A DNA stretch of 64,000 bases. Source: Minisyncoccota bacterium (GTDB lineage Bacteria; Patescibacteriota; Minisyncoccia; Phycocordibacterales; VMEP01). Where the stretch lies: contig JBAZUR010000001.1 in the NCBI GenBank assembly GCA_041661305.1, positions 33,591 through 97,590 on the forward strand. The letters are read 5' to 3'. The notes under the pieces are model-generated. The model made no database searches. It saw only the letters and a program-made list of their open reading frames with translations, and had not been told where the DNA came from. Both the position numbers and the translations under genes were made by a program. Shown piece by piece: positions 5,948-29,829 of this stretch (position 1 is the first letter of the stretch; each line of letters begins with the position of its first letter).

Positions 5948-6006
5948 TATTTAGTGTGAAAAAATTCCAGCTATTTAAATTTTAAAGATTTGTGTTATAG
6001 TATTTT

Positions 6007-6371
6007 GGCCTTGAACCGGACAGTCGCTCTAACTTTATTGTTGGGGAGGAAAGTCCGAACACTTACTGTCTAACCGTTCGGCGACAGTAGAAGGGTAGCG
6101 GGTAACGCCCGTCCGGAGCAATCCGAGAGGTGCGAGCAGTGACGTCGATGCCGAAAGGCTAGACCTCCCACGTGGAGGAATCCTATAGAAATATAGGGGT
6201 GAAACGGCTAAATCCTTACTTAAGTGCAAGGCCGTGCCATCTTTATGATGGAGTGCCGCTTGAGCCCGTAAGTAATTACGAGCCCAGATAAATGGCTGTC
6301 GCCCCGTGAGATAGGCGTCGAAAGACGCCGCCATCTCACGGGGTACAGAATTCGGCTTATAGGTTCAGGGT
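6007..6371 (+). ncRNA. rnpB: RNase P RNA (bacterial type)
   Basis: ACCGGACAGTCGC near the 5' end, GGGGAGGAAAGTCCGAACAC (P4 GGAAAGUCCG box) and 3' ACAGAATTCGGCTTATAGG (ACAGAAxCCGGCUUA box). P1 pairing ccttgaacc/ggttcaggg. Confidence 0.8.
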
Positions 6372-6376
6372 AAACA

Positions 6377-6406
6377 AAAAAGACCATATTTTATGGTCTT
6401 TTTTGT
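6377..6406 (+). terminator. Rho-independent terminator after rnpB
   Basis: Hairpin aagaccata-ttt-tatggtctt followed by TTTTTTGTT. Confidence 0.7.
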
Positions 6407-6504
6407 TGTCCACTTTTTAACACACAATTAAGATTGTGTGTTATTCCAAATTTCTTATATAATATTGAACACTTAATTAATAAATTTAAATAACTTTCAT
6501 TTTC

Positions 6505-8865
6505 ATGCAAGGAATAAAAAAATTGTTTTCATTGGAGGCATTACCGTTTGGATTATTGGTTGGTTTAGTTTTCTTATTACCAGTTTTTTTCTTGTCTGTA
6601 AGTGGGATTTCTCTTGATGTAAGTAAGAGTGTCCTCGCAGTTATCTTAATTGTTGCCGCGACAGCCTTGTGGCTAGTGGGGCGTATGGTGGATGGCAAGA
6701 TTGTTGTACCAAAAACACTTCTTGTTTTGTTCGCAGCATTACTTCCACTTGAATATTTAGTTTCAGCTGTTGCTTCAAAAGTTCCAGCGATGTCACTTTT
6801 TGGTCAAGGTTTTGAAGTCGGAACATTTGCATTCACTTTTGTGATGTTCCTTCTTTTGTTCTTGGCTTCTATTTTGGTTAATTCAAGAGACAAAGTGTTC
6901 ACAGTTTACGTGTCGGCAATGGCTTCTTTCTTGGTAGTAGCTATTTACCAAGGAATTCGTCTTTTTGCAGGAGCAGATGTCCTTACTTTAGGAGGAAACT
7001 TCTCTGGTGTAATCGCCAATACTGTTGGTAAATGGAACGATTTAGGGGCATTTTTTGGGATGATAGCTATTCTTTCCATGATAACCCTTGAAACATTACC
7101 TCTTAAGGGTTTTGTTAAGTACCTCACTTATTTGTCTCTTGCTGTCTCAGTATTTTTCTTGGCCGTTGTTAACTTCAGTTTTGCCTGGATTGCTCTCGCT
7201 GTAATCTCTCTTATGATTTTTGTTTTTGCGATTTACTTAAACAAAAGCGAAAACCCAACAAATGATCAAGAAGCTCCTTCTTTGATACCAAAGACAAAGG
7301 TTCCAGTAATTGCACTTGTTGTACTTCTAATTTCACTCTTTTATGTTTTTTCCGGAGATAAAATTGGTGGTTTCTTGCCAACACAGTTCAATGCTTCACA
7401 AGTAGAGGTTCGTCCATCCTGGAGTGCTACATATGACATCGTGAAGGGTTCTCTTTCTCAGAATCTTCTACTAGGAAGTGGTCCTAACCGTTTTTCATCA
7501 GAGTGGGCATTGCACCGACCAGCAGTTTTGAATGAAACAATTTTCTGGGCAACTGACTTTAACGCCGGGATTGGTTTGATTCCATCGTTCGCTGTCACAA
7601 CTGGACTTTTTGGTGTTTTGGCTTGGGTTTTATTCCTTGGATATTTCCTCTTCCGTGGGGTCAAGAGCATTCTCATGTTTGATATGGGACGTATGGCTCA
7701 GTATTCAATACTCTCGTCTTTCCTTTTGTCTGTGTATTTATGGCTCTTCGCAATGTTCTACGTTCCTAATGTTGTGATCTATGCCTTGGCATTCCTTATG
7801 ACAGGAGTTTTCATTGCCACCTTAATAAACGAGGGGATTGTTAAAACTTACCAAATCTCACTCCTTGGAAGTCCTAAAATTGGTTTTGTTTCTGTGCTTG
7901 CTTTAATTTCTCTAACGATTGCTTCGGCTGCACTTGGTTATGTTTTTGTTGAGAAAGCAATATCATCTATTAATTTCCAGAAGACTATTCAGGCTTTGAA
8001 TACTGATGGAGATTTTGACAAGGCTGAAGTTGGCTTGCTTAAAGCAGTTCAGTTTTCAGAGAACGATCTTTACTACAGATCACTTTCTCAGGTTTATTTG
8101 GTTAAGTTGAATAATTTATTCCAACAGCAAAACCTTACTGAAGCAGAGGCAAAATCACAATTTCAAGCTATTCTTGGAAATGCTATAGAAAATGCTCGTA
8201 AGGCTCGCGATTATGACGCAACAAACTACACGAACTGGATGAATCTAGCATCAGTTTACGAGTCTGTTGTTCAGCTCGGTGTTACTGGTGCTTACGACGA
8301 AGCAAAGAAAGCTTACGAGCAGGCTTCTGTTTTAAACCCACAAAGTCCGCTTGTATACCTCACACTTGCTCGTCTTGAGGTTGCAAACAAAGACAACAAG
8401 GCCGCTCGAGAAAACCTTAACAAAGCACTCGCTCTAAAGAGCAATTACACAGATGCGCTCTTCTTCCTTTCTCAGCTTGAAGCAGGAGAGGGAAATATAG
8501 CAGAAGCGATTTCAAGAGCAGATCAAGCTTCGTTATTGTCACCAAATGATGTCGGTTTGTTCTTCCAGTTGGGTTTGTTGAAATACACCAACAAAGACTA
8601 CAATGGTGCAATTCTTTCTTTGGAGCGCGCAGTACAGCTTAATGGGAATTATTCAAACGCAATGTACTTCCTTGGCTTAAGTTACGACAAGGTTGGAAGA
8701 AAGGCTGATGCTCTTGCTCAGTTTGAAAAAGTTGAAGCACTAAATCCAGACAACCAAGAGGTTAAGAACATTCTTGTTAACCTTAGAGATGGAAAGAGTG
8801 CGTTAACTGATGTTCCTCCACCATCCCCAGAAAAGAAGAGTAATCCTCCAGTAAAAGAAAATTAA
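6505..8865 (+). CDS. Polytopic membrane protein with C-terminal TPR repeats (O-antigen ligase/Wzy-like family)
   Basis: About 12 hydrophobic helices in the N-terminal ~470 aa. C-terminal ~300 aa has repeated TPR-like units (AYEQASVLNPQS, ALALKSNYTDALFFL, AVQLNGNYSNAMYFLG...). Confidence 0.6.
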   Translation: MQGIKKLFSLEALPFGLLVGLVFLLPVFFLSVSGISLDVSKSVLAVILIVAATALWLVGRMVDGKIVVPKTLLVLFAALLPLEYLVSAVASKVPAMSLFGQGFEVGTFAFTFVMFLLLFLASILVNSRDKVFTVYVSAMASFLVVAIYQGIRLFAGADVLTLGGNFSGVIANTVGKWNDLGAFFGMIAILSMITLETLPLKGFVKYLTYLSLAVSVFFLAVVNFSFAWIALAVISLMIFVFAIYLNKSENPTNDQEAPSLIPKTKVPVIALVVLLISLFYVFSGDKIGGFLPTQFNASQVEVRPSWSATYDIVKGSLSQNLLLGSGPNRFSSEWALHRPAVLNETIFWATDFNAGIGLIPSFAVTTGLFGVLAWVLFLGYFLFRGVKSILMFDMGRMAQYSILSSFLLSVYLWLFAMFYVPNVVIYALAFLMTGVFIATLINEGIVKTYQISLLGSPKIGFVSVLALISLTIASAALGYVFVEKAISSINFQKTIQALNTDGDFDKAEVGLLKAVQFSENDLYYRSLSQVYLVKLNNLFQQQNLTEAEAKSQFQAILGNAIENARKARDYDATNYTNWMNLASVYESVVQLGVTGAYDEAKKAYEQASVLNPQSPLVYLTLARLEVANKDNKAARENLNKALALKSNYTDALFFLSQLEAGEGNIAEAISRADQASLLSPNDVGLFFQLGLLKYTNKDYNGAILSLERAVQLNGNYSNAMYFLGLSYDKVGRKADALAQFEKVEALNPDNQEVKNILVNLRDGKSALTDVPPPSPEKKSNPPVKEN

Positions 8866-8889
8866 TATCAGGTAATGATTCTTGTTTAA

Positions 8890-10569
8890 ATGGTTAAAAG
8901 AATCATAGACGCATTAAGTAAAGAAGTAAGCGGTCTACACGAGGCCGCTTTTCTTCTTGGGTTCTTTGCTGTGGCGTCACAAATCCTGGCTCTTTTGAGA
9001 GACCGTTTGTTCGCGAATTATTTTGGAGCAGGACCAACACTAGATGTTTATTACGCGGCATTCCGCATTCCAGATGCGTTGTATGTAGTTATTGCTTCGT
9101 TCGTGTCTGTGTCGGTCATCATTCCATTTCTTTCTCGGATGGAAGGGGACGAAACAAAAGCAAAGAGATTTGTTTCAGAGATATTCACCATTTTTTCTCT
9201 AGTGATGGTGTTTTCTAGTGTTGTTGTTTTTTTCTTAATTCCATACCTAGCGCCACTTATCGCCCCTGGTTTTTCAGAAGAACAAATAAATACACTTATA
9301 GTACTTTCCCGAATCCTGCTTTTGTCACCGTTTATTCTAGGACTTTCAAATAATATTTTTGGAAGTATCACCCAGTTCTACAAGAGGTTTTTTGTTTATG
9401 CTCTTGCTCCGGTTTTGTATAACGCGGGAATAATTGTCGGTGTTTTTCTTTTCTATCCGACATTTGGGATGAAAGGCCTGGCTTTTGGTGTTGTTTTTGG
9501 GGCCCTGCTACATGTTTTGGTTCAATTGCCGGTTGCTATCGAGCGTGGTTTTATGCCTCGTTTTGTTAAAGAAATGAACTGGAAAGACATTTCCCAGGTT
9601 GTTGTTGTTTCTTTGCCACGAACAATAACCCTTTCTGCAAACCATTTTGTTTTGATTGCTTTAGGTGCTTTGGCGTCGACTATGTATGTTGGGTCTATTT
9701 CAATCTTCAATTTCTCGTTTAACTTGCAATCAGTTCCATTGGCAACAATTGGGGTCGCATATTCAATGGCCGCCTTCCCGATGCTTGCGTCGTTTTTTAC
9801 TCGAGGTGAAAAAGAAAGATTTGTAGAGCACATGATAACCGCCTTAAGACACATAATTTTTTGGTCTGTACCAATTACAGTACTTTTTATTGTTTTACGA
9901 GCACAGATAGTGCGTACAATATTAGGCTCCGGTGCTTTTAGTTGGAATGATACCCGCCTTACAGCAGCGGCACTCGCTTTATTTTCCTTTTCGGTGCTAA
10001 CTCAAAGTTTGACAGTTCTTTTTTCAAGAGGGTATCATGCGGCCGGGGATACGAGGAAACCACTTTTTATTAATTTATTTTCCTCGGTCGGTGCTATCGG
10101 TGGAGCATTTTGGTTGGTGGTACTTTTTGAAAAAAATACTTTCTTTCAGTATTTTATAGAATCTATCTTGCGTGTTGATTATATTCCCGGGACGATTGTT
10201 TTGATGCTACCACTCGCTTATTCTATTGCTTCGATAATTAACGCTACGATGCATTGGTTTATGTTCGAAAAAGATTTTAACATTGACCTTTATCACATAA
10301 TAAGAAAAACGTTTTTTGAAAGCTTTTCCGCCTCAGTCATTATGGGTTTTGTCGCCTATAATTGTTTGAATTTTTTTGCTCTAATTTTAAACACCCAAAC
10401 TGCTGTTGGAATTTTTCTCCAAGGATTTTTGTCGGGAGGAATAGGGATTATTTTCGGTATTATTGTTTTAAAAATTTTAAAAAATAGTGAAATTAGAGAT
10501 ATTTCATTTGCGTTACATAAAAAGTTTTGGAAAGCGGATGTTGTTGCCCCGGCACAAGAAGAGCTATAG
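8890..10569 (+). CDS. murJ: Lipid II flippase MurJ (MviN)
   Basis: N-terminus LLGFFAVASQILALLRDRLFANYFGAGPTLDVYYAAFRIPD is the MurJ signature. 14-TM layout. Confidence 0.8.
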   Translation: MVKRIIDALSKEVSGLHEAAFLLGFFAVASQILALLRDRLFANYFGAGPTLDVYYAAFRIPDALYVVIASFVSVSVIIPFLSRMEGDETKAKRFVSEIFTIFSLVMVFSSVVVFFLIPYLAPLIAPGFSEEQINTLIVLSRILLLSPFILGLSNNIFGSITQFYKRFFVYALAPVLYNAGIIVGVFLFYPTFGMKGLAFGVVFGALLHVLVQLPVAIERGFMPRFVKEMNWKDISQVVVVSLPRTITLSANHFVLIALGALASTMYVGSISIFNFSFNLQSVPLATIGVAYSMAAFPMLASFFTRGEKERFVEHMITALRHIIFWSVPITVLFIVLRAQIVRTILGSGAFSWNDTRLTAAALALFSFSVLTQSLTVLFSRGYHAAGDTRKPLFINLFSSVGAIGGAFWLVVLFEKNTFFQYFIESILRVDYIPGTIVLMLPLAYSIASIINATMHWFMFEKDFNIDLYHIIRKTFFESFSASVIMGFVAYNCLNFFALILNTQTAVGIFLQGFLSGGIGIIFGIIVLKILKNSEIRDISFALHKKFWKADVVAPAQEEL

Positions 10570-21576: not shown

Positions 21577-21609
21577 AAATTATTTTAGAGGAGCCGAAGA
21601 AGTTTCAGT

Positions 21610-21779
21610 TTGTGATGTAATTCTATCCTTTGCACGAACCTTTTTCGAGCGGAGCTCGTAACGCCTCGCTTCACTCGGCGCCCACCGCGCGATTACGCGC
21701 GGTCGCCCTTCGCCCCATCGCTCTCCATTCTTTATCAGTCCGGCGGGAAATTCTTTGATTTAGGTATGGGCGATGGGGC
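21610..21779. repeat. IR-A left copy (170 bp perfect inverted repeat)
   Basis: Exact reverse complement of 27906-28075. GC-rich. Confidence 0.9.
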
Positions 21780-22310
21780 TTCGGGCGAAATGCAAATTCA
21801 GAATACATCAATCGTGTCTCGGTCATTACTCTATCATTTTGCTTTCCTGACTTAAAGGGGTCCATCCTCGGCATTCGCCTCGGGCATTTCCGCTATGGCT
21901 ACGAGCGCCTAGATGTCTAGGAGCGGGCATTCTCTCGCCAACGGCTCAAATACCAGGAGATGAGCCGTTCGGCTCGCTTGCCCGCGACCATTTGGGGAGA
22001 GGAAGTTATCCTCTCCCCAGCGTCGGGCTCCTCCTCGCAGTGGTTAGCGGGAGTATTCAGTGCCGTATTTCCTTAGTGGTTTGCCTGTGTTTTCCTCTCG
22101 CTTTTATGTGCCTACGGAGTCCGCCCTCGCACAACCCCTCTCCTCGTTTTCAATATTTCCTTAGTAGTGTCGCTTCCGCTACTTAGCTTCGCGTTTCAAG
22201 ATAGAGTCGGCGCTCGTCCTTTAGTCATGGACGCCATAGCGGAAATGCCCGAGGCGCAAATGCATGTGCTTGCCCCTCCCTCCCGTGCGCGCACGCACCC
22301 GCTCCCTTGT

Positions 22311-22880
22311 TTAGATTTTAGAATACGATACGCTTTTTCCTGTTTTGCCTGTTTGTTTGATTTTCCCTTCTTTCGCCAGTGTTGATAGATACCTTGTCGC
22401 TGTGGCATCAGACACATGCAGGAGTTTCTCCACCTCGTCGTTAGTTATGCTTGCCCGCTTCTCAAGCAATACCAAAATCTTTTCCAGTTTCTTTCGTTTC
22501 CGGAACTGCATTGCGTTTCGCGCAATCGCTAGCAATTCACGGGCTCGGCTTCTTGGTTCTACTGCCGGAGTCGGAACTTGAGCCATTGGTTCGGGCTTCA
22601 ACGGCTCATTTGCCGGTATTTGAGCCGTTTGGGTTTGGGCTGGTTCGGCAACCGGTTCAAGAGCTAAATCAGGCTCATTTTGGGCTTCCGGTTGAGCCGT
22701 TTTCTCGGGTTCGGGGGCTTGGGCTGTAGGCTCGTTTGGTGGCTCAGAAACGGCAGGCGTATCAATGACCGGAGACGATATAACTTCGCTTGCGGGGGCT
22801 TCCACGGCCTCAGGGGGCACAGGGGAGGGTTCGGAAACGGTTGTATCTTTGGGAGGGAGTGTTAGGGGGTCTGGGGGCAT
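22311..22880 (-). CDS. Pro/Glu-rich protein with C-terminal winged-helix DNA-binding domain
   Basis: Low-complexity PEPxA N-terminus. C-terminal LLEKRASITNDEVEKLLHVSDATATRYLSTLAKEGKIKQTGKTGKSVSY wHTH. Confidence 0.5.
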   Translation of the reverse strand: MPPDPLTLPPKDTTVSEPSPVPPEAVEAPASEVISSPVIDTPAVSEPPNEPTAQAPEPEKTAQPEAQNEPDLALEPVAEPAQTQTAQIPANEPLKPEPMAQVPTPAVEPRSRARELLAIARNAMQFRKRKKLEKILVLLEKRASITNDEVEKLLHVSDATATRYLSTLAKEGKIKQTGKTGKSVSYSKI

Positions 22881-22908
22881 ATTTATATTTTAGCAAAATA
22901 AAAAACAT

Positions 22909-24402
22909 CTATCCTAAAGCAACCAGTCCATCCTTTAGTACCATCGTGGCTTTACAGTCATCTTCGTTATATTCAAGTATCCTATTTATAACTTTTTCGT
23001 CTTTTGTATTGATATAATCATTAAACCACTGAATAGACAGTGCCCCGGATGGTGTTTCGTCGCGCCAATGAAATCCTAGATATGTAGCGAGCGCTTTGAG
23101 AGAATAGCTACCTACCGGCCAGTCTGTCATCTTAAGTACAACTTGGTATAAATCAATAACATTTGGATTATCAAAAAATTCTTCAACCTCTTTCGCTGAA
23201 ATTACCTCAGGATATTTTTTCTGCATCTTGCTATATGTAGTTTTTTCATGATGAGAATAGTAATACACGGAAAAATCTCCTTTAGGTAATGATTTTACAT
23301 AAGTCCAAAAATCTCCCCACGCTTTTTTCTCCGCGTCCGCTGTTATTTCGTGTGCAGTAAAATGCAAATAGCGTTCTCTTTCCTTTGTTCTCTCGTAAAC
23401 TCCGTGCATATAAACAAACTCTTGAGTGGGGTCATCTTCAATATCAAAAAATAACTCATGAGATACTTCAGGGAAATCTAATTCCCCATAAATAAGAGGT
23501 TTTTTAGATACCTTAAGAATTTGTGCCCTCCTAACAGCTTTCTCAAGAGTGGATTTACCTACCCCTTTAAGAAAGGTTTTGTCTTTCTCTTTCTGTTCCA
23601 GAAGTCCGTCAGTATCAATTTTTAAAAGACTATCAATAGTATTTACACCTGCATCCTCGGCAAGAACATCTCTTACTGAACGACCGACATAAAAGATGTT
23701 AGTTGGGTCATCATTATCTTTTGCCCACTTACTACAACTTAGATACCATGGGCACAACTTACAAATTCCAGACATTGCTGGCTTATTCGTTGCTTTATTT
23801 TCCATCAAAATACCAACATTGTTTTTTATTGATTCATAAAATTCCCACCATGTACGCTTATCTCTTTGCCCCATAGCGTCATTGAGATTGTAGGTGACTT
23901 CCTTTCCCTCAATATCAAGAACCACAGCACAATCATTGTTTTTAAAACCATTCTTTTTTAATACATCAACATATAAAGCTAGCTGTACTGCATAATGTTT
24001 TTTAGGTTTTCCTTCCTCGTCCTCGTCACTATTAGCCCCCTCAAAAGCAAGTCCGGACTTAATGTCTATAGGAACATAAGAACCATCAGGTTCTAAACGA
24101 AGTAGGTCTGGAATACCCAAAAGGTTGTCATAGCACAACACCCCCTGATAAATAAGAGGGATTTTGTCGGAAAGGGCTTTAATGGTTTTTTGAAATCGTT
24201 CATCAAGAGAGCCTTCTGTTAAGTCAAGGTATTCCTCAAGCAAACTAACTCGCTTTTTTTCATAAGCAATTCCTTTAGACCAAAGAAGTTCTACGAAAGG
24301 GTTAGTTTCCTTTATTTTCTCATCTTGTGGGCCGTATTCATCTCGCCAAATACGATGCGGACATTGAATATAGTCGTAAAGTTTGGATGCGGTTATATAC
24401 AT
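22909..24402 (-). CDS. Cas4/RecB-like PD-(D/E)XK Fe-S nuclease with a C-terminal domain of unknown function
   Basis: N-terminal YIQCPHRIW Cys, GIPDLL, IDIKSG (ExK-type), QLALYVDVL (QxxxY) and C-terminal CKLCPWYLSC (Cx2Cx5C), the Cas4/AddB-type 4-Cys cluster. About 270 aa extra C-terminal domain (possibly DUF2779-like; uncertain). Confidence 0.7.
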   Translation of the reverse strand: MYITASKLYDYIQCPHRIWRDEYGPQDEKIKETNPFVELLWSKGIAYEKKRVSLLEEYLDLTEGSLDERFQKTIKALSDKIPLIYQGVLCYDNLLGIPDLLRLEPDGSYVPIDIKSGLAFEGANSDEDEEGKPKKHYAVQLALYVDVLKKNGFKNNDCAVVLDIEGKEVTYNLNDAMGQRDKRTWWEFYESIKNNVGILMENKATNKPAMSGICKLCPWYLSCSKWAKDNDDPTNIFYVGRSVRDVLAEDAGVNTIDSLLKIDTDGLLEQKEKDKTFLKGVGKSTLEKAVRRAQILKVSKKPLIYGELDFPEVSHELFFDIEDDPTQEFVYMHGVYERTKERERYLHFTAHEITADAEKKAWGDFWTYVKSLPKGDFSVYYYSHHEKTTYSKMQKKYPEVISAKEVEEFFDNPNVIDLYQVVLKMTDWPVGSYSLKALATYLGFHWRDETPSGALSIQWFNDYINTKDEKVINRILEYNEDDCKATMVLKDGLVALG

Positions 24403-24463
24403 ACAAGTATCAGAAAACTATACCACTTGCTTTGTTTTATTTATATACCACCTAAAATCACAA

Positions 24464-25306
24464 TTATTGATTGGTTGGTTTAGCTATACCGGAAACAACA
24501 GAATTAACTTTTGAAAATAAATCTGGACTGTTTTCCTTCTCCTTTACATGATTGTCCTTGATATTTTTCATGGGCGAGGAATAAAGATCAGTGACGGCTC
24601 CAAGAATGAAGTCAAGTTTTTGCTGATAAGTAGTGGATTGGTAGTCAGAAAAAATTTCTTCAATTATATTTTTGTATGCTTCAAATGAGCGTGCGATAGC
24701 AGCTTTAAAAGTATATTCTTCAATGAGATTTCGTATCCGACCATATTCTCTACTGGTAAAAACGACAAAATAGACAATAGGGGAAGTCAGGGCAACTTTT
24801 ATTAGAAAGCTAACTTCAAATATAGTTTCTTTTTCTAGAATCTGCCAGACAACTATACCAACGGTGGCAATAATAAGAACGACCACTGCTCCAACTAGCC
24901 ACCAAAACCATTTTATTTTCTCTTTTCCCAACTCGTCCTTAACTCCTTCAAATGTACTCGCAAGCTTCGCATTTGCAGCCACCCCAAGTTGCGCCTGAGT
25001 CTCTTTAATAAACTCTTCTACTTTCTGTTGTAACTCTTTTGTTTTTTCAACTAAGTCGGACACTTCTCCTTCTCGTGTAATAACTTGTTCGTTTAGACTT
25101 TTTACCTCTGTGGTTATGCGGTTTAGTTCTTCGCTCCGTGTTGGCAAATCGTTTAGAAAAGAATCAATGTTAGTTTTTTTAGTTTGAGCGTCATTAATAA
25201 GATTTGGTAAACCCTGTCCTTGTTGAACAAGACTGTTTAAATCACCTAATGCCGTAAGTCGCTGATTTATCTCTGTAAGGACTTGTTGTAATTCTTTTTT
25301 ATTCAC
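24464..25306 (-). CDS. Coiled-coil membrane protein (hypothetical)
   Basis: N-terminal ~130 aa heptad-rich, two TM helices (FWWLVGAVVVLIIATVGIVVW; IKVALTSPIVYFVVF), C-terminal soluble tail. Confidence 0.5.
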   Translation of the reverse strand: MNKKELQQVLTEINQRLTALGDLNSLVQQGQGLPNLINDAQTKKTNIDSFLNDLPTRSEELNRITTEVKSLNEQVITREGEVSDLVEKTKELQQKVEEFIKETQAQLGVAANAKLASTFEGVKDELGKEKIKWFWWLVGAVVVLIIATVGIVVWQILEKETIFEVSFLIKVALTSPIVYFVVFTSREYGRIRNLIEEYTFKAAIARSFEAYKNIIEEIFSDYQSTTYQQKLDFILGAVTDLYSSPMKNIKDNHVKEKENSPDLFSKVNSVVSGIAKPTNQ

Positions 25307-25402
25307 AAATTTTTTTATCTAACTAATAATGTGGATAACTAGTTTTGGACTTTCTAGTTTTGTTCTAGTATAATTGATGGGTAAGAAACAAGTCAAGCCT
25401 AT

Positions 25403-26926
25403 ATGCTCACAAAACGCCAAAAAGAAGTTCTAGACTTCGTAGGAAGTTATTCCCAAAAGAAAGGTTATTCTCCATCGTTTGAAGAAATCAAAAAGCGACT
25501 TAAGCTCGCCTCTGTCTCAACTGTTCATTTCCATATATCAAAACTCAAAGAAGGTGGTTATTTAGGAAAAACAGAAAATAAGGCTCGTGCCATTAGTGTT
25601 GCGTCTAAAGAACCGATGATCAAAATCCCTCTTTTGGGAACTATCGCAGCCGGAGAGCCTATAGAGGCAATTCGTCAAAATGAGTTTATTGCTGTTCCTA
25701 AGAATGTATTACCTAGTACCGGTAATCTTTATGCTTTGAGAGTGATAGGAAATAGTATGATAGATGAAAATATTAAAAACGGAGATATTGTCTTAGTAAA
25801 ACAGCAAGATGTCGCGGAAAATGGAGAAAGGGTTGTTGCTTTAATTGATAATCATGAGGCAACGCTTAAGAAATTTTATAAAGAACGAGGATATATACGA
25901 CTTCAACCGGCAAATAAAACCTTTGAACCGATTATTATAAGAAAAGATCGTGACATTAAAATTCAAGGAGTTGTTATAGATGTTATTAAAAACGAGGAGG
26001 AATTACAGGCGGAGGAAATTACAATAATCAAAGAGACAAAAAAGGAAAGAAAGTTACCCCTTAATAAAATAATTTTAGGAGACGCTATCCAAGAACTAAG
26101 AAAACTCCCTAATGAAAGTTGTGATGTTGTTATAATTGATCCACCCTATAATATCGGTAAAGATTTTGGAAATAATATAGATAAAAGAGAACTTGGAGAA
26201 TATGTGGAGTGGTGTAAAAGTTGGATAGACGAAAGCATAAGAATCATGAAGCCAAATGGGACAATGTTTATTTATGGTTTTAGTGAAATTTTGGCTTACC
26301 TTTCTATTGAAATCCCGATACAAAAACGGTGGTTAATTTGGCATTATACAAATAAAAATGTTGCCTCACTCAATTTTTGGCAACGAAGCCATGAAGCAAT
26401 AATTTGCGCATGGAAAGATAAACCTGTTTTCAATAGGGATGAAGTTAGAGAACCATACACAGACGGCTTCCTAAATGGAGCTGCCGGCAAGGTAAGAAAA
26501 GGAACTCTCGGGAGATTTAGTAGCAGTGGTCTAGAAACTGTCTATAAAGCTCACGCGGGCGGGGCTCTGCCAAGAGATGTAATCAAAATTCCGGCTCTTG
26601 CTGGAGGAGCGGGAATGAACGAAAGATGGTTTTTGTGTAAAACCTGTGACGATGTTTGTGAACCACGACAACTGAAAAATCATGAGGGGCATGAAGTAAT
26701 GAAGCACCCGACACAAAAACCATTTGAGCTATCTAAGAAATTAATAAAATCTGCTATGCCTAAAAAGGACGGAATTGTGTTGGTTCCCTTCGTTGGTACT
26801 GGTTCAGAATGCGCGGCGGCAAAAGAATTAGGTCAATCGTATATTGGCTTTGAAATTAACCCTGACTATGTGAGGTTAGCTGAAAAAATGGTAGGCGATA
26901 AAAAATCGGTTGCCAAATTATTTTAA
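25403..26926 (+). CDS. Full-length LexA repressor fused in-frame to a DNA methyltransferase (beta-class N6A/N4C)
   Basis: Residues 1-200 align over their whole length with LexA: LTKRQKEVLDFV HTH, IAAGEP cleavage site, GNSM Ser and LKKFYK Lys. Residues ~230-507 carry VVIIDPPYN (motif IV), then C-terminal VLVPFVGTGSE (motif I) and a CxxC..H..H insert. Confidence 0.8.
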   Translation: MLTKRQKEVLDFVGSYSQKKGYSPSFEEIKKRLKLASVSTVHFHISKLKEGGYLGKTENKARAISVASKEPMIKIPLLGTIAAGEPIEAIRQNEFIAVPKNVLPSTGNLYALRVIGNSMIDENIKNGDIVLVKQQDVAENGERVVALIDNHEATLKKFYKERGYIRLQPANKTFEPIIIRKDRDIKIQGVVIDVIKNEEELQAEEITIIKETKKERKLPLNKIILGDAIQELRKLPNESCDVVIIDPPYNIGKDFGNNIDKRELGEYVEWCKSWIDESIRIMKPNGTMFIYGFSEILAYLSIEIPIQKRWLIWHYTNKNVASLNFWQRSHEAIICAWKDKPVFNRDEVREPYTDGFLNGAAGKVRKGTLGRFSSSGLETVYKAHAGGALPRDVIKIPALAGGAGMNERWFLCKTCDDVCEPRQLKNHEGHEVMKHPTQKPFELSKKLIKSAMPKKDGIVLVPFVGTGSECAAAKELGQSYIGFEINPDYVRLAEKMVGDKKSVAKLF

Positions 26927-27613
26927 AGCCTCATCCATTTCCTTTTTCTTCTGCTCAAAGGCGTAAGGAGTAAAAACAACGAAACCATTAGGGAATCGTT
27001 TTAATTCTTTGTTATCTTGGAACCTTTTATATGGGAGTTTATATTCGCCGTCCTTTTTCTTTGGGTTTTCAAAATACTCACTACTTGGAACTTCATAATT
27101 AATATCAATGAACTCGCCTTCTATTTTGTTTTTGACTCCTCCCTTACCACGCCTAACCTCGCCACTGAATGATTTCTTTTTAACTTGGTAGTTCAAGATT
27201 TTGCCTCTATATGTAATTTGAAAATCTGCTCCCTGATGGTCAAGCTCGCCTGACATAGAAACTGTGCCTTCGCCAAAAACTGATTCTGCAACATAACCGG
27301 CGTGGATTTGAGTGATTATACTCGCCCATGTTCTATAAATTCTAGCGGGCAATCCTTTATGAAAACATTCTTTACACATCCCAATTTTTTCTTGAAACTT
27401 TTTAATCTCTGCCCCATATTCACTCATATACTCTTTGTAAAATTCATCAAAACTTAGAAATTCTTTCTTCCCCCAGTATATTTTGTAGAGTAGGTTAATA
27501 GCTTGGATTTCTTTTGGTAAATCCATTTCCACGATCTTAACAGGTCTATATTTTTCACGATAGGACTTAAGGTCAACTGATTGTAAAAATTTGTCGAATT
27601 TTTGGACTAGCAT
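26918..27613 (-). CDS. Candidate type II restriction endonuclease (no recognisable family)
   Basis: 231 aa. Convergent with the MTase with a 9-nt 3' overlap. Immediately downstream of and co-oriented with the XRE controller gene. Possible D..(ADFQI)..K core. Confidence 0.4.
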   Translation of the reverse strand: MLVQKFDKFLQSVDLKSYREKYRPVKIVEMDLPKEIQAINLLYKIYWGKKEFLSFDEFYKEYMSEYGAEIKKFQEKIGMCKECFHKGLPARIYRTWASIITQIHAGYVAESVFGEGTVSMSGELDHQGADFQITYRGKILNYQVKKKSFSGEVRRGKGGVKNKIEGEFIDINYEVPSSEYFENPKKKDGEYKLPYKRFQDNKELKRFPNGFVVFTPYAFEQKKKEMDEALK

Positions 27614-27616
27614 AAA

Positions 27617-27835
27617 TTATAGAAAATATGATGACGGTTTTTGGTATATCTCTGCAAATTTTTTCATTTCTGCCACATCAAGCCTTCTTTCACCAGATTC
27701 AATCTTTGAGATAAAAGATTGTGGTTTCCCGAGCTTATCAGCAACATCTTGCTGTGCTAATCCGGCTTCAACACGCGCCTTTTTCAAGCGTCTTATAATC
27801 TCTTTGTAGTCCTTTGAATAAACAGATTTACTCAT
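27617..27835 (-). CDS. XRE-family HTH regulator (C-protein-like controller)
   Basis: MSKSVYSKDYKEIIRRLKKARVEAGLAQQDVADKLGKPQSFISKIESGERRLDV is a canonical HTH_XRE. Start taken at the internal ATG; the longer ORF extends into IR-A. Confidence 0.7.
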   Translation of the reverse strand: MSKSVYSKDYKEIIRRLKKARVEAGLAQQDVADKLGKPQSFISKIESGERRLDVAEMKKFAEIYQKPSSYFL

Positions 27836-27870
27836 GTATTTAGTATGATATATCCTTTTATGGTATAATC

Positions 27871-27897
27871 CCAAAATAGGATTATATAGAGTAGTTT
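27871..27897 (-). promoter_or_regulatory. Candidate C-box/operator palindrome upstream of the controller gene
   Basis: TATAATCC-tattttg-GGATTATA inverted repeat about 35-60 bp upstream of the XRE start. Confidence 0.35.
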
Positions 27898-27905
27898 TAC
27901 CCCTC

Positions 27906-28075
27906 GCCCCATCGCCCATACCTAAATCAAAGAATTTCCCGCCGGACTGATAAAGAATGGAGAGCGATGGGGCGAAGGGCGACCGCGCGTAATCGCGCGG
28001 TGGGCGCCGAGTGAAGCGAGGCGTTACGAGCTCCGCTCGAAAAAGGTTCGTGCAAAGGATAGAATTACATCACAA
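27906..28075. repeat. IR-A right copy (170 bp)
   Basis: Exact reverse complement of 21610-21779. Its outer 6 bp overlap IR-B left. Confidence 0.9.
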
Positions 28076-28206
28076 TTTGATACATCGGCTGGATTAAGAA
28101 AAAAATCGGCGTCCGCCTTCGGCGGAGTAAGTGGAGATAAAACGAAATCTGCCTTGCGGGTGCGGGCGAAATCGGAGGGCGGGCAAAATGAGATTGAGAT
28201 AGTTTT
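28070..28206. repeat. IR-B left copy (137 bp perfect inverted repeat)
   Basis: Exact reverse complement of 29624-29760. Confidence 0.9.
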
Positions 28207-28231
28207 TAAAGATTTTGAATCCAAAAGCGAT

Positions 28232-29818
28232 ATGTCTAAACCAAAATATTTTCTCTATGCTCGCAAGAGTACTGAAGATGACGATAAGCAAGTCATGAGT
28301 ATTGAAGCTCAATTGTTTGAACTTCGTGAGTTTGCGAGCAGAGAAAATCTTGAAATTATTGAGGAATTTCAAGAGTCAAAAAGCGCAAAGAGTCCGGGAC
28401 GAGAAGTGTTCGGCGTAATGATGATGCGTATAGAGAAAATGGGTAATGTTGGTATTCTCGCGTGGCATCCTGACCGCTTGGCGAGAAACAGTATTGATGG
28501 CGGACGCATCATTTACGCCGTAGACACTTCAAAAATCGTCTCTTTGCGTTTTCCGACATTTTGGTTTGAACCCACTCCGCAGGGGCTATTTATGCTTCAA
28601 GTGGCGTTCGGACAGTCCAAATATTATTCCGACAATTTGAAGCAGAATGTTGAACGAGGTATGCGCCAAAAACTGCGACGGGGCGAATGGCTGACACGCG
28701 CTCCCTTCGGGTATGTGAACAATCCTAAAACGCGCAATATTGAGCCGGATGTAGTGAAATCTAAAATTATTGTCCGCGCGTTTGGAGAATATGTAAAAGG
28801 AACACATACTCTAGAGTCGCTGTCGCAGTTTTTGGCTCTGCACGGTGTAGCGCAAAAGTCCGGAACGCCACTTGGCAAAGCTTCCGTGAAAAGAATTTTG
28901 ACTAATCGCGCTTATCTTGGATTCACTTTGCATCGCGGAGAATATTTTCCCGGAAGCTTTGCGCCAATTCTTTCTCCGACATTGTTTGAAGCTGTACAAA
29001 AAAGATTGGAAGAGCGAGCGCGTCCAAGACACAGCAAAATATCCCATAATTTTCCTTTCGTTGGTCTTTTTCGTTGTGGCGAGTGTGGCTCAATGATTAC
29101 CGCCCAATGGGCGACAAACCGGTGGGGTTCAAAGTATAGATATTATCGCTGTACGAAAAAGAAAGGAAAATGTTATCAGGGATATTTGAAAGAAGACGCT
29201 CTCGCTCTCCAAGTTAAGGAACAGCTTCAATCAGTGTCTATACCCCTAGCGTGGGCGGATTATATGCTCAAAAAAGTGGAAGAATTTGAGCATAACGAAA
29301 AACACGCTTCGGGAAATCGTCTCGGGCAGATGAAGGACAATCTGAAAACGCTTGAAGCGAAGTTAGACGCTCTTGTTGATTTGTATCTAAACCAAGACAT
29401 TGAGCGCGAGATATATCTGACGAAAAAGGACGCGCTCATGCGTCAAAAACTTTCGCTTCAAGCCAAATCTTCATCCGCCCGAGCCGTGAGAAAGAATTGG
29501 GTCGAACCCCTGCGGAAATGGATTTTGGATTCAAAACGCTCGGGGTTTCTCGCCACGAGCGAAAATCTCTATGAGATGAGAGATTTTCTTCGTTCCTTCG
29601 GAACGAACCCCTCGCTTAAAGACAAAACTATCTCAATCTCATTTTGCCCGCCCTCCGATTTCGCCCGCACCCGCAAGGCAGATTTCGTTTTATCTCCACT
29701 TACTCCGCCGAAGGCGGACGCCGATTTTTTTCTTAATCCAGCCGATGTATCAAATTGTGACCCTACAGGGAATCGAACCCTGGTTCCAAGCTTGAAAAGC
29801 TTGTGTCCTAACCGTTAG
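28232..29818 (+). CDS. Large serine recombinase (resolvase/invertase catalytic domain, recombinase domain and zinc ribbon)
   Basis: YARKSTEDDDKQVMSIEAQ (catalytic Ser), GILAWHPDRLAR, recombinase-domain segment and CGECGSMI...YRCTKKKGKC zinc ribbon. Start at MSKPKYF. The open frame runs through IR-B right into tRNA-Glu, so the true C-terminus is uncertain. Confidence 0.8.
   Translation: MSKPKYFLYARKSTEDDDKQVMSIEAQLFELREFASRENLEIIEEFQESKSAKSPGREVFGVMMMRIEKMGNVGILAWHPDRLARNSIDGGRIIYAVDTSKIVSLRFPTFWFEPTPQGLFMLQVAFGQSKYYSDNLKQNVERGMRQKLRRGEWLTRAPFGYVNNPKTRNIEPDVVKSKIIVRAFGEYVKGTHTLESLSQFLALHGVAQKSGTPLGKASVKRILTNRAYLGFTLHRGEYFPGSFAPILSPTLFEAVQKRLEERARPRHSKISHNFPFVGLFRCGECGSMITAQWATNRWGSKYRYYRCTKKKGKCYQGYLKEDALALQVKEQLQSVSIPLAWADYMLKKVEEFEHNEKHASGNRLGQMKDNLKTLEAKLDALVDLYLNQDIEREIYLTKKDALMRQKLSLQAKSSSARAVRKNWVEPLRKWILDSKRSGFLATSENLYEMRDFLRSFGTNPSLKDKTISISFCPPSDFARTRKADFVLSPLTPPKADADFFLNPADVSNCDPTGNRTLVPSLKSLCPNR
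29624..29760. repeat. IR-B right copy (137 bp)
   Basis: Reverse complement of 28070-28206. Ends exactly at the 3' end of tRNA-Glu. Confidence 0.9.
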
Positions 29819-29829
29819 ACGATAGGGCC
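29758..29829 (-). tRNA. tRNA-Glu (anticodon TTC)
   Basis: Reverse complement GGCCCTATCGTCTAACGGTTAGGACACAAGCTTTTCAAGCTTGGAACCAGGGTTCGATTCCCTGTAGGGTCA. Confidence 0.8.

Follow-up and report, generated by a model that had tools for sequence, protein, structure and literature searches.

The stretch of DNA analysed here, a 64-kb window of contig JBAZUR010000001.1 from a Minisyncoccota bacterium (positions are counted from the first base of this window), carries at 25403..26926 on the plus strand a single uninterrupted gene of 507 codons, without internal stop, in which a complete LexA repressor is joined to a DNA methyltransferase (MTase). We propose, at a probability of roughly 55%, that the product is the self-repressing MTase of a mobile Type II restriction-modification (R-M) system, that its dedicated LexA domain is competent for cleavage and that repression is lifted by RecA-stimulated self-cleavage. 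The proposal is carried by the invariance of the predicted cleavage site and catalytic residues, by the position of a putative direct-repeat operator within the gene's own promoter, by the covariation of this repeat with the recognition helix and by the exchange of promoter and LexA part between unrelated MTases.

R-M systems are known to be regulated by C (controller) proteins, by MTases with a fused helix-turn-helix (HTH), by antisense RNAs and by promoter methylation, all of which, to our knowledge, sense the system's own state only. What is apparently new here is a LexA regulatory domain, predicted to be signal-responsive, within the otherwise known scheme of dual-function MTase-repressors. 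If the proposal is true, the MTase reads the DNA-damage signal of the cell directly, and SOS and R-M are joined in one polypeptide.

Domain architecture and spread of the fusion family

A sequence-only reading of the window had placed a LexA with all its hallmarks in the first 200 or so residues, followed by a charged linker and a beta-class amino-MTase. Profile searches and comparison with solved structures confirmed the LexA/S24 and N6/N4 MTase assignments. The N-terminal part matched LexA_DNA_bind (PF01726; residues 2-63, 25406..25591; E 2e-15), a LexA-type winged helix whose recognition helix, taken from the alignment of the N-terminal domain, reads SVSTVHFHISKL. It was followed by Peptidase_S24 (PF00717; residues 76-192, 25628..25978; E 3e-31), the autoprotease and dimerisation domain. 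The NCBIfam lexA equivalog TIGR00498 scored 187.7 bits over residues 2-197 against a cut-off of 110.95, and the nearest solved structure for residues 2-196 was Thermotoga maritima LexA (3k2z, E 2e-35). By profile, the N-terminal half is a LexA family member. The motifs AAGEP (residues 82-86), GNSM (116-119) and LKKFYK (155-160) were found as the reading had stated them, and their codons were confirmed; the predicted self-cleavage bond A83-G84 is encoded at 25649..25654, S118 at 25754-25756 and K156 at 25868-25870.

The C-terminal part matched N6_N4_Mtase (PF01555; residues 241-495, 26123..26887; E 2e-37) and PADLOC MTase_II, and its nearest solved structures were the beta-class MTases 8urk, M.MboIIA (1g60) and M.RsrI. 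DPPY (motif IV; residues 246-249, 26138-26149) lies N-terminal to FVGTGS (the FxGxG of motif I; residues 463-468, 26789-26806), which is the beta-class order. By profile and motif order the C-terminal half is a beta-class amino-MTase. The Cys/His insert noted in the sequence-only reading, CKTC..HEGH at residues 412-430 (26636-26692), has the pattern C-x2-C-x11-H-x2-H and stands directly before the HPTQKP motif. C412, C415, H427 and H430 were all invariant in the family, and the insert probably binds zinc as part of the target-recognition region. The charged linker (residues 196-225, 25988..26077) was the least conserved segment in an alignment of 121 family members, and the AlphaFold2 (AF2) model gave a predicted local distance difference test score (pLDDT) below 35 for residues 199-225 and shows the linker as unstructured. 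In the same alignment A83, G84, S118, K156 and DPPY were invariant.

An assembly chimera or a frameshift at the junction, for which nothing was found in favour, is ruled out. Four independent contigs, from Logan, JGI and ENA assemblies made with different assemblers from different samples, carry the identical 507-residue protein. The same junction recurs across hundreds of orthologues, and every aligned family member has its linker in frame. The best 120 database clusters in a collection of 5.8 billion proteins all had the same three domains, at 74-93% identity. The fusion was present in about 40 GTDB species-representative genomes, all with Patescibacteria labels (Taylor-, Campbell-, Jorgensen-, Yonath-, Falkow-, Yanofsky-, Kaiser-, Magasanik-, Kuenen-, Nomura-, Staskawicz- and Buchananbacteria) except for two short contigs in metagenome-assembled genomes (MAGs) labelled otherwise, which are probably binning noise. 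Searches of 50,697 phage records, 72,556 plasmids and IMG/VR gave no sequence that spans both halves. The family is restricted to Patescibacteria, a group that is difficult to grow and about whose regulation very little has been learnt.

The architecture had been taken to be undescribed. This held for the literature, since no paper describing a LexA-MTase fusion was found and the word LexA is absent from a 2025 review of R-M biology (PMC12707154); a 2017 paper on the SOS network of Patescibacteria (Sanchez-Osuna et al., Environ Microbiol 19:3465) lay outside the search and might mention the fusion. The architecture is apparently undescribed, then, but it is not a one-off. The family is large, already deposited and mis-annotated as plain LexA or plain methylase, the NCBI name being 'transcriptional repressor LexA' and that of JGI 'site-specific DNA-methyltransferase'. 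Such mis-annotation affects counts of SOS regulators and the reconstruction of regulons in Patescibacteria genomes. The nearest MTase-only relative outside Patescibacteria among plasmids was an unannotated sequence in Spiroplasma citri CP047444.1, with 50% identity over residues 241-507. One MAG held two copies of the fusion, at L047 6142-7513 and L029 4649-6202, of which one was intact and the other split by a frameshift, with a truncated restriction endonuclease (REase) alongside.

Distant fusions were sought among 1.84 billion representatives, as clusters at no more than 50% identity with the LexA module at residues 1-200 plus further sequence. Dozens of clusters had the module followed by another domain. 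The partner in 42 distant fusions was always a DNA MTase (N6_N4 in 30, D12 in 7, the gamma-class N6_Mtase/Eco57I/TaqI_C in 7 and C5 in 2), and the partners comprised alpha, beta, gamma and C5 classes. For ten of these the search had used only the LexA part, and each of the ten again proved to carry an MTase. The Ala-Gly bond, the Ser and the Lys were kept in 42/42, and those distant fusions that carried a name were all from Patescibacteria.

The LexA and MTase parts have also moved independently among close relatives. The window protein and that of locus L046 were 91% identical in their LexA parts and 30% in their MTase parts; L024 against L049/L051 gave 92% and 26%. The breakpoint of these swaps was the linker, and in both sets promoter and operator were conserved along with the LexA part. 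By these comparisons the promoter-LexA module has been exchanged recently between unrelated MTases. Because the scissile bond and the dyad are strictly conserved across lineages that exchanged their MTase, the alignments argue that self-cleavage is used by the fusion. In a rough neighbor-joining tree, which carries no support values, the fused LexA modules formed essentially one clade, apart from most stand-alone LexAs of 200 residues. Locus L022 encodes at 6001-9390 a protein of 1129 residues in which LexA and a beta-class MTase are continued by a C-terminal half resembling a gamma-class (NPPW) MTase; next come a further gene for a gamma-class MTase and a convergent gene for 320 residues.

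Promoter of the fusion gene and its putative operator

The region upstream of the fusion gene was compared in an alignment of 37 distinct upstream regions, with the expectation for repeats obtained from shuffles. The 96 nt 5' of the gene in the window contain four elements, in the order TGTGGATAA, -35 hexamer, direct repeat and TATAAT, and this layout was common to the aligned loci. The -35 hexamer, TGGACT (25346..25351), was found by a consensus scan with a 10/12 match and a 17-nt spacer; shifted one base upstream it reads TTGGAC, and its position was kept in related loci as TTGAyT or TTGGAC. The -10 hexamer TATAAT (25369..25374) was conserved across loci. The spacer between them is filled by the putative operator, a direct repeat TTCTAG-N5-TTCTAG with a period of 11 bp (25352..25368). 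All these elements are on the plus strand. Given the position of the repeat inside the core promoter, binding to it is predicted to repress the fusion gene itself.

A perfect 7-mer repeat at period 11 occurred in 22/37 upstream regions, where 0.42 was expected, and perfect 7-mer repeats at periods 7-10 or 12-15 were practically absent. Within the whole window, perfect TTCTA-N6-TTCTA occurred once, at the fusion gene's own promoter, and matches with one mismatch were at chance level (11 against 8.25 expected). The operator was not found upstream of the C/R operon or of the recombinase gene in the window. The sequence-only reading had looked to LexA boxes, as palindromes, upstream of this gene and of the REase and controller genes. 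A putative box was found at the first of these places, as a direct repeat and not a palindrome, and no such repeat upstream of the C/R operon.

The half-site varied together with the recognition helix of the fused winged-helix-turn-helix (wHTH) across loci. In the main family the helix S-T-x-H-F/Y-H (HFH) goes with the half-site TTCTA, whereas H-E-H (L008, L025 and L032) goes with TCGGG, SGVSEH (L031) with GTTCGGT, H-K-H (L026) with TTCAC, and Q-H (L041 and L043) with TTAGGT. It is mainly because of this covariation that the 11-bp direct repeats are predicted to be binding sites of the fused LexA domain, and the same comparison suggests that the LexA part is an autorepressor of the M gene acting through them. 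The sequence-only reading had stressed a methyltransferase tethered to LexA. The two are indeed joined, but the comparative data favour LexA as the autorepressor of the M gene through its own promoter. Direct-repeat LexA boxes with an 11-bp period are known in Alphaproteobacteria, among them the SOS box GTTC-N7-GTTC of Caulobacter (PMC9578287). A reading of the repeats as C-protein sites was ruled out, since they are also present where a C gene is missing and vary in step with the LexA helix. As a small portable module with several operator specificities, the promoter-LexA unit could give orthogonal damage-inducible repressor-operator pairs.

The first element, TGTGGATAA (25330..25338, plus strand), lies just 5' of the -35 hexamer and is a 9/9 match, on the other strand, to the DnaA-box consensus TTATCCACA. 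As TGTGGATAA(CT) it was conserved 5-8 nt 5' of the LexA-MTase -35 in most of the loci L005-L052. It occurred 44 times in 500 kb of loci, with about 6 expected in all, and 26 of the occurrences were upstream of fusion genes. It was also present 5' of a stand-alone lexA gene (L048), a ribonucleotide-reductase-like gene (L032) and a second wHTH-MTase gene (L043). The element was ruled out as the operator of the fusion, since it stays constant across loci whose recognition helix changes and also stands 5' of unrelated genes; it may be a DnaA site or a promoter element of Patescibacteria. The second gene of L043 (6150-7247), which has no S24 domain and encodes an SPPY MTase, shares the TTTAGG repeat and the TGTGGATAA box with the first wHTH-MTase gene of that locus.

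Two further observations concern the same intergenic region. The motif AAGTCAAG (25385-25400 in the window) was found 5-10 nt 5' of the fusion ATG in most loci and is not a Shine-Dalgarno sequence. On the minus strand, a promoter-like site at 25367-25396 (TTGACT-18-TATACT) overlaps the -10 hexamer and operator of the M promoter and faces the gene at 24464..25306 (minus strand), which encodes a coiled-coil/membrane protein of 280 residues and is not a conserved neighbour in other loci. This gene might be co-regulated with M.

Restriction-modification module, proposed regulation and competing explanations

By homology of its neighbours, the fusion gene is the M component of a C-controlled Type II R-M module. 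A TaqI-family Type II REase of 231 residues (26918..27613, minus strand; RE_TaqI E 5e-36 in Pfam, PADLOC REase_II E 2e-34) is convergent with M, and the 3' ends of the two genes, including the stop codons, overlap by 9 nt. The identical convergent overlap occurred in about 22/27 related loci, and the REase gene adjoined the fusion in most loci. A C protein of 72 residues (27617..27835, minus strand; Pfam HTH_3, start codon placed by homology) is encoded directly 5' of R in the same orientation, as are 72-residue homologues in many loci; its matches to PADLOC Control_protein were weak. A C-box-like palindrome, ATAATCC-N7-GGATTAT (27865..27885), lies upstream of the C gene at its promoter, overlaps a promoter-like site at 27874-27845 (minus strand) and was conserved 5' of C in eight loci (L005, L012, L013, L015, L017, L023, L028 and L037). 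No second LexA or MTase was found when all open reading frames of the window were searched with phmmer. From the TaqI-family partner, TCGA is the probable specificity of the MTase. The observed/expected ratio of TCGA in the window was 0.73, and GATC was more strongly depleted at 0.45. The convergent partner is a His-Me finger nuclease in L050 and L051 instead of a TaqI-like REase, and an uncharacterised protein of 215-269 residues in L008/L027 and L009.

In the proposed regulation, the direct repeat would be bound by the two winged helices of a dimer formed through the S24 domains, and RNA polymerase would be blocked. In a naive cell M would be made at full rate and throttled later, while R is delayed by the C protein; once the R-M system is established, autorepression would hold the MTase at a set level. 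RecA filaments formed on single-stranded DNA, either after general damage or where the system's own REase has cut unmethylated DNA, would induce the protein to cut itself at A83-G84. The cut would separate the wHTH (residues 1-83) from the S24-MTase part (residues 84-507), repression would be lost and transcription of M would rise. Because M and R converge with overlapping stops and leave no room for a terminator, transcription of M is expected to interfere with that of C and R; stronger M transcription would run antisense into R and C and hinder their expression. While DNA is damaged and under repair, the net outcome would be a shift from restriction towards modification, so that Type II systems would have their own form of damage-induced restriction alleviation, and a feedback loop would result if the REase itself breaks under-methylated host DNA. 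A wider proposal, which we hold only tentatively and at somewhat less than even odds, is that in Patescibacteria promoter, operator and cleavable LexA form a portable unit, which has been grafted on MTases of every class and makes Type II R-M responsive to SOS. RecA filaments, also those that arise from cutting by the nuclease of the system, would lead to cleavage, more modification and, through convergent transcription, less restriction. If this is true, no self-contained feedback loop that senses damage has been described before for Type II R-M.

Fused repressor domains at the N-terminus of MTases are established for Ecl18kI, SsoII and EcoRII (PMC12707154). In M.Ecl18kI, M.SsoII, M.EcoRII and M.MspI an N-terminal DNA-binding domain is followed by a flexible linker, the operator lies in or at the MTase promoter, and M represses its own gene (PMC12707154, PMC3978073, PMC2760811). 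The fusion resembles these enzymes in having an N-terminal DNA-binding domain linked to the MTase and, by prediction, an operator at the M promoter. However, it contains a whole LexA with S24 domain and cleavage site in place of an HTH of about 70 residues, and it is a beta-class amino-MTase, whereas the known dual-function MTase-repressors are C5 enzymes. Its system also differs from theirs in the 11-bp direct repeat within the core promoter, in the separate C protein for R and in the convergent instead of divergent arrangement of the genes. We would regard the fusion as a functional analogue of the SsoII/Ecl18kI-type MTase-repressors and not as a member of their family, its domain being LexA-type by profile.

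Canonical LexA (TIGR00498) and the fusion are alike in domain order, in the Ala-Gly bond, in the Ser/Lys dyad and in a score above the equivalog cut-off. The fusion differs in its C-terminal enzyme of 300 residues, in apparently controlling only its own promoter and in lying on mobile R-M cassettes, and in at least one genome (L048) it coexists with a distinct stand-alone LexA. Lambda CI and SetR of the SXT integrative and conjugative elements are element-encoded repressors that read the host RecA signal by LexA-type self-cleavage. The fusion is likewise an element-encoded S24 repressor, its cleavage being predicted from the conserved residues; lambda CI and SetR, in contrast, are free-standing and control lysis or transfer genes, whereas the repressor here is part of the enzyme that it regulates and sits on an R-M cassette. 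In Esp1396I the C protein also regulates M, whereas in the present module a regulator is fused to M itself and its promoter showed no C-box. The C gene directly 5' of R, the palindromic C-box and the convergent M are otherwise like the arrangement in Esp1396I (convergent M and R) and PvuII (C-box logic) (PMC2175313). Damage-induced restriction alleviation in Type I systems proceeds by ClpXP degradation of HsdR (PMC12707154). It resembles the proposed outcome here in that restriction is reduced while damaged DNA is repaired, but its mechanism, host proteolysis of the restriction subunit, is wholly different; a comparable damage-induced alleviation for Type II systems was not described in the sources compared.

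Several points weigh against the proposed damage response. Canonical LexA dimers bind palindromes, and binding to direct repeats is assumed here by analogy only. The AF2 model of the fusion (mean pLDDT 59.5, predicted template modelling score 0.36, the LexA part alone being moderately confident) is too poor to inform geometry. A recA gene was found neither in the window nor in 58 loci, which has little weight because only a small part of each genome is covered. Forms of 379-403 residues without S24, in which the winged helix is joined straight to the same MTase, were found at L041 5935-7146, L043 3889-5064, L044 5995-7134 and L045 5989-7155. They retain the 11-bp direct-repeat operator, and S24 would therefore be dispensable for autoregulation. 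These forms and the absence of recA from the sequences covered, together with the fact that known fused repressor domains have no protease (PMC12707154), speak for an autoregulated MTase without damage response, in which LexA would serve as a ready-made dimeric DNA-binding repressor module, like the N-terminal domains of M.SsoII and M.Ecl18kI, and cleavage would be irrelevant or vestigial. We consider this explanation rather unlikely. Just 4 of about 45 loci have an S24-less form, and a pure dimerisation role is disfavoured because A83, G84, S118 and K156 are invariant in the 121 close and 42 distant fusions, which a scaffold role would not maintain at identities of 50% or less.

The sign of the effect could also be the opposite, with the cleaved MTase degraded and the REase then killing the cell. 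Under such damage-triggered self-destruction, degrons would be exposed by the cut, the MTase fragment would be degraded, modification would fall and the REase would kill damaged or phage-infected cells, following the logic of abortive infection or addiction. The N-terminal product would end in I-A-A, like the ClpX signal of cleaved E. coli LexA. R-M systems are known to act as addiction modules (PMC3874152). However, loss of the repressor would also derepress M and counter the loss of MTase while fresh uncleaved protein continues to be made, and the 48-kDa fragment carries no degradation mark in its sequence. We judge this outcome improbable.

Hardly credible, in our view, is that the fusion is the master SOS repressor of the organism and the MTase an added epigenetic function, although the NCBI name and the lack of any other LexA in the window would agree with it. 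The perfect operator occurs once in the window, at the fusion's own promoter, and no DNA-repair regulon under shared operators was found there. The gene lies on mobile cassettes in varied chromosomal contexts, always beside nucleases, and the fused modules form their own clade in the rough tree. Locus L048 encodes at 666-1500, 5 kb from its fusion gene, a stand-alone LexA that shares only 32% identity with the fused one and keeps Ala-Gly, Ser and Lys. Its promoter contains the palindrome CCCGACC-TTTT-GGTCGGG between TTGACA and TATAAT. Because this genome has a separate stand-alone LexA with a different box, the fusion is not expected to be the host SOS regulator. That this box is palindromic and not a direct repeat is, on the other hand, one more point against the proposed mode of operator binding. 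No palindromic box of the L048 type was found in the window. The half-site of the L048 palindrome resembles the TCGGG half-sites of the direct repeats in the L008, L025 and L032 fusions. The self-repressing, damage-responsive MTase remains the reading that we prefer.

Mobile-element setting and neighbouring genes

The sequence-only reading had located the gene in an R-M-like module on a mobile element; besides the REase and C genes described above, long inverted repeats, a recombinase gene and a tRNA gene were identified. Inverted repeats of 192 nt (left arm 21599..21790, right arm 27895..28086; 95% complementary) bracket a cargo of 6.1 kb that holds the R-M module. A large serine recombinase (28232..29818, plus strand; Resolvase, Recombinase and Zn_ribbon_recom domains) is bracketed by perfect inverted repeats of 137 nt (28070..28206 and 29624..29760, 100% complementary). 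The right arm of these abuts the 3' end of a tRNA-Glu gene (29757-29829, minus strand), which adjoins the recombinase unit.

The same cassette topology was found at L051 4696-10173, with unrelated repeat sequences, a different LexA-MTase R-M module and a tRNA-Gly gene. The recombinase there is 43% identical to that of the window and holds the equivalent position beside the R-M module. In both places (21599-29829 in the window) two cassettes apparently stand in tandem. The cargo ends in long inverted repeats, of 192 nt in the window and of 203 nt in L051, and the recombinase gene is flanked by perfect ones of 137 nt and 114 nt, respectively. A core repeat of 17-26 nt lies between the two cassettes, and the pair borders directly on the 3' end of a tRNA gene. 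The R gene directly adjoins a tRNA gene in five further loci, and the genes around the fusion module vary from genome to genome. In L001 the M, R and C proteins are identical to those of the window and the upstream DNA diverges just 5' of the -35 hexamer. A mobile-element setting of the R-M module is supported by these comparisons.

Some minor features of the cargo were also observed. The segment 21790-22880 has about 51% GC against about 39% around it and contains two pairs of inverted repeats (21876-21899/22233-22256 and 21940-21969/22600-22629). Within this GC-rich stretch, an open reading frame at 22311..22880 (minus strand) encodes a protein whose N-terminal half is rich in proline and which ends in a winged helix. 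The stretch is adjoined by a gene for a TM0106-type RecB-like nuclease (22909..24402, minus strand).

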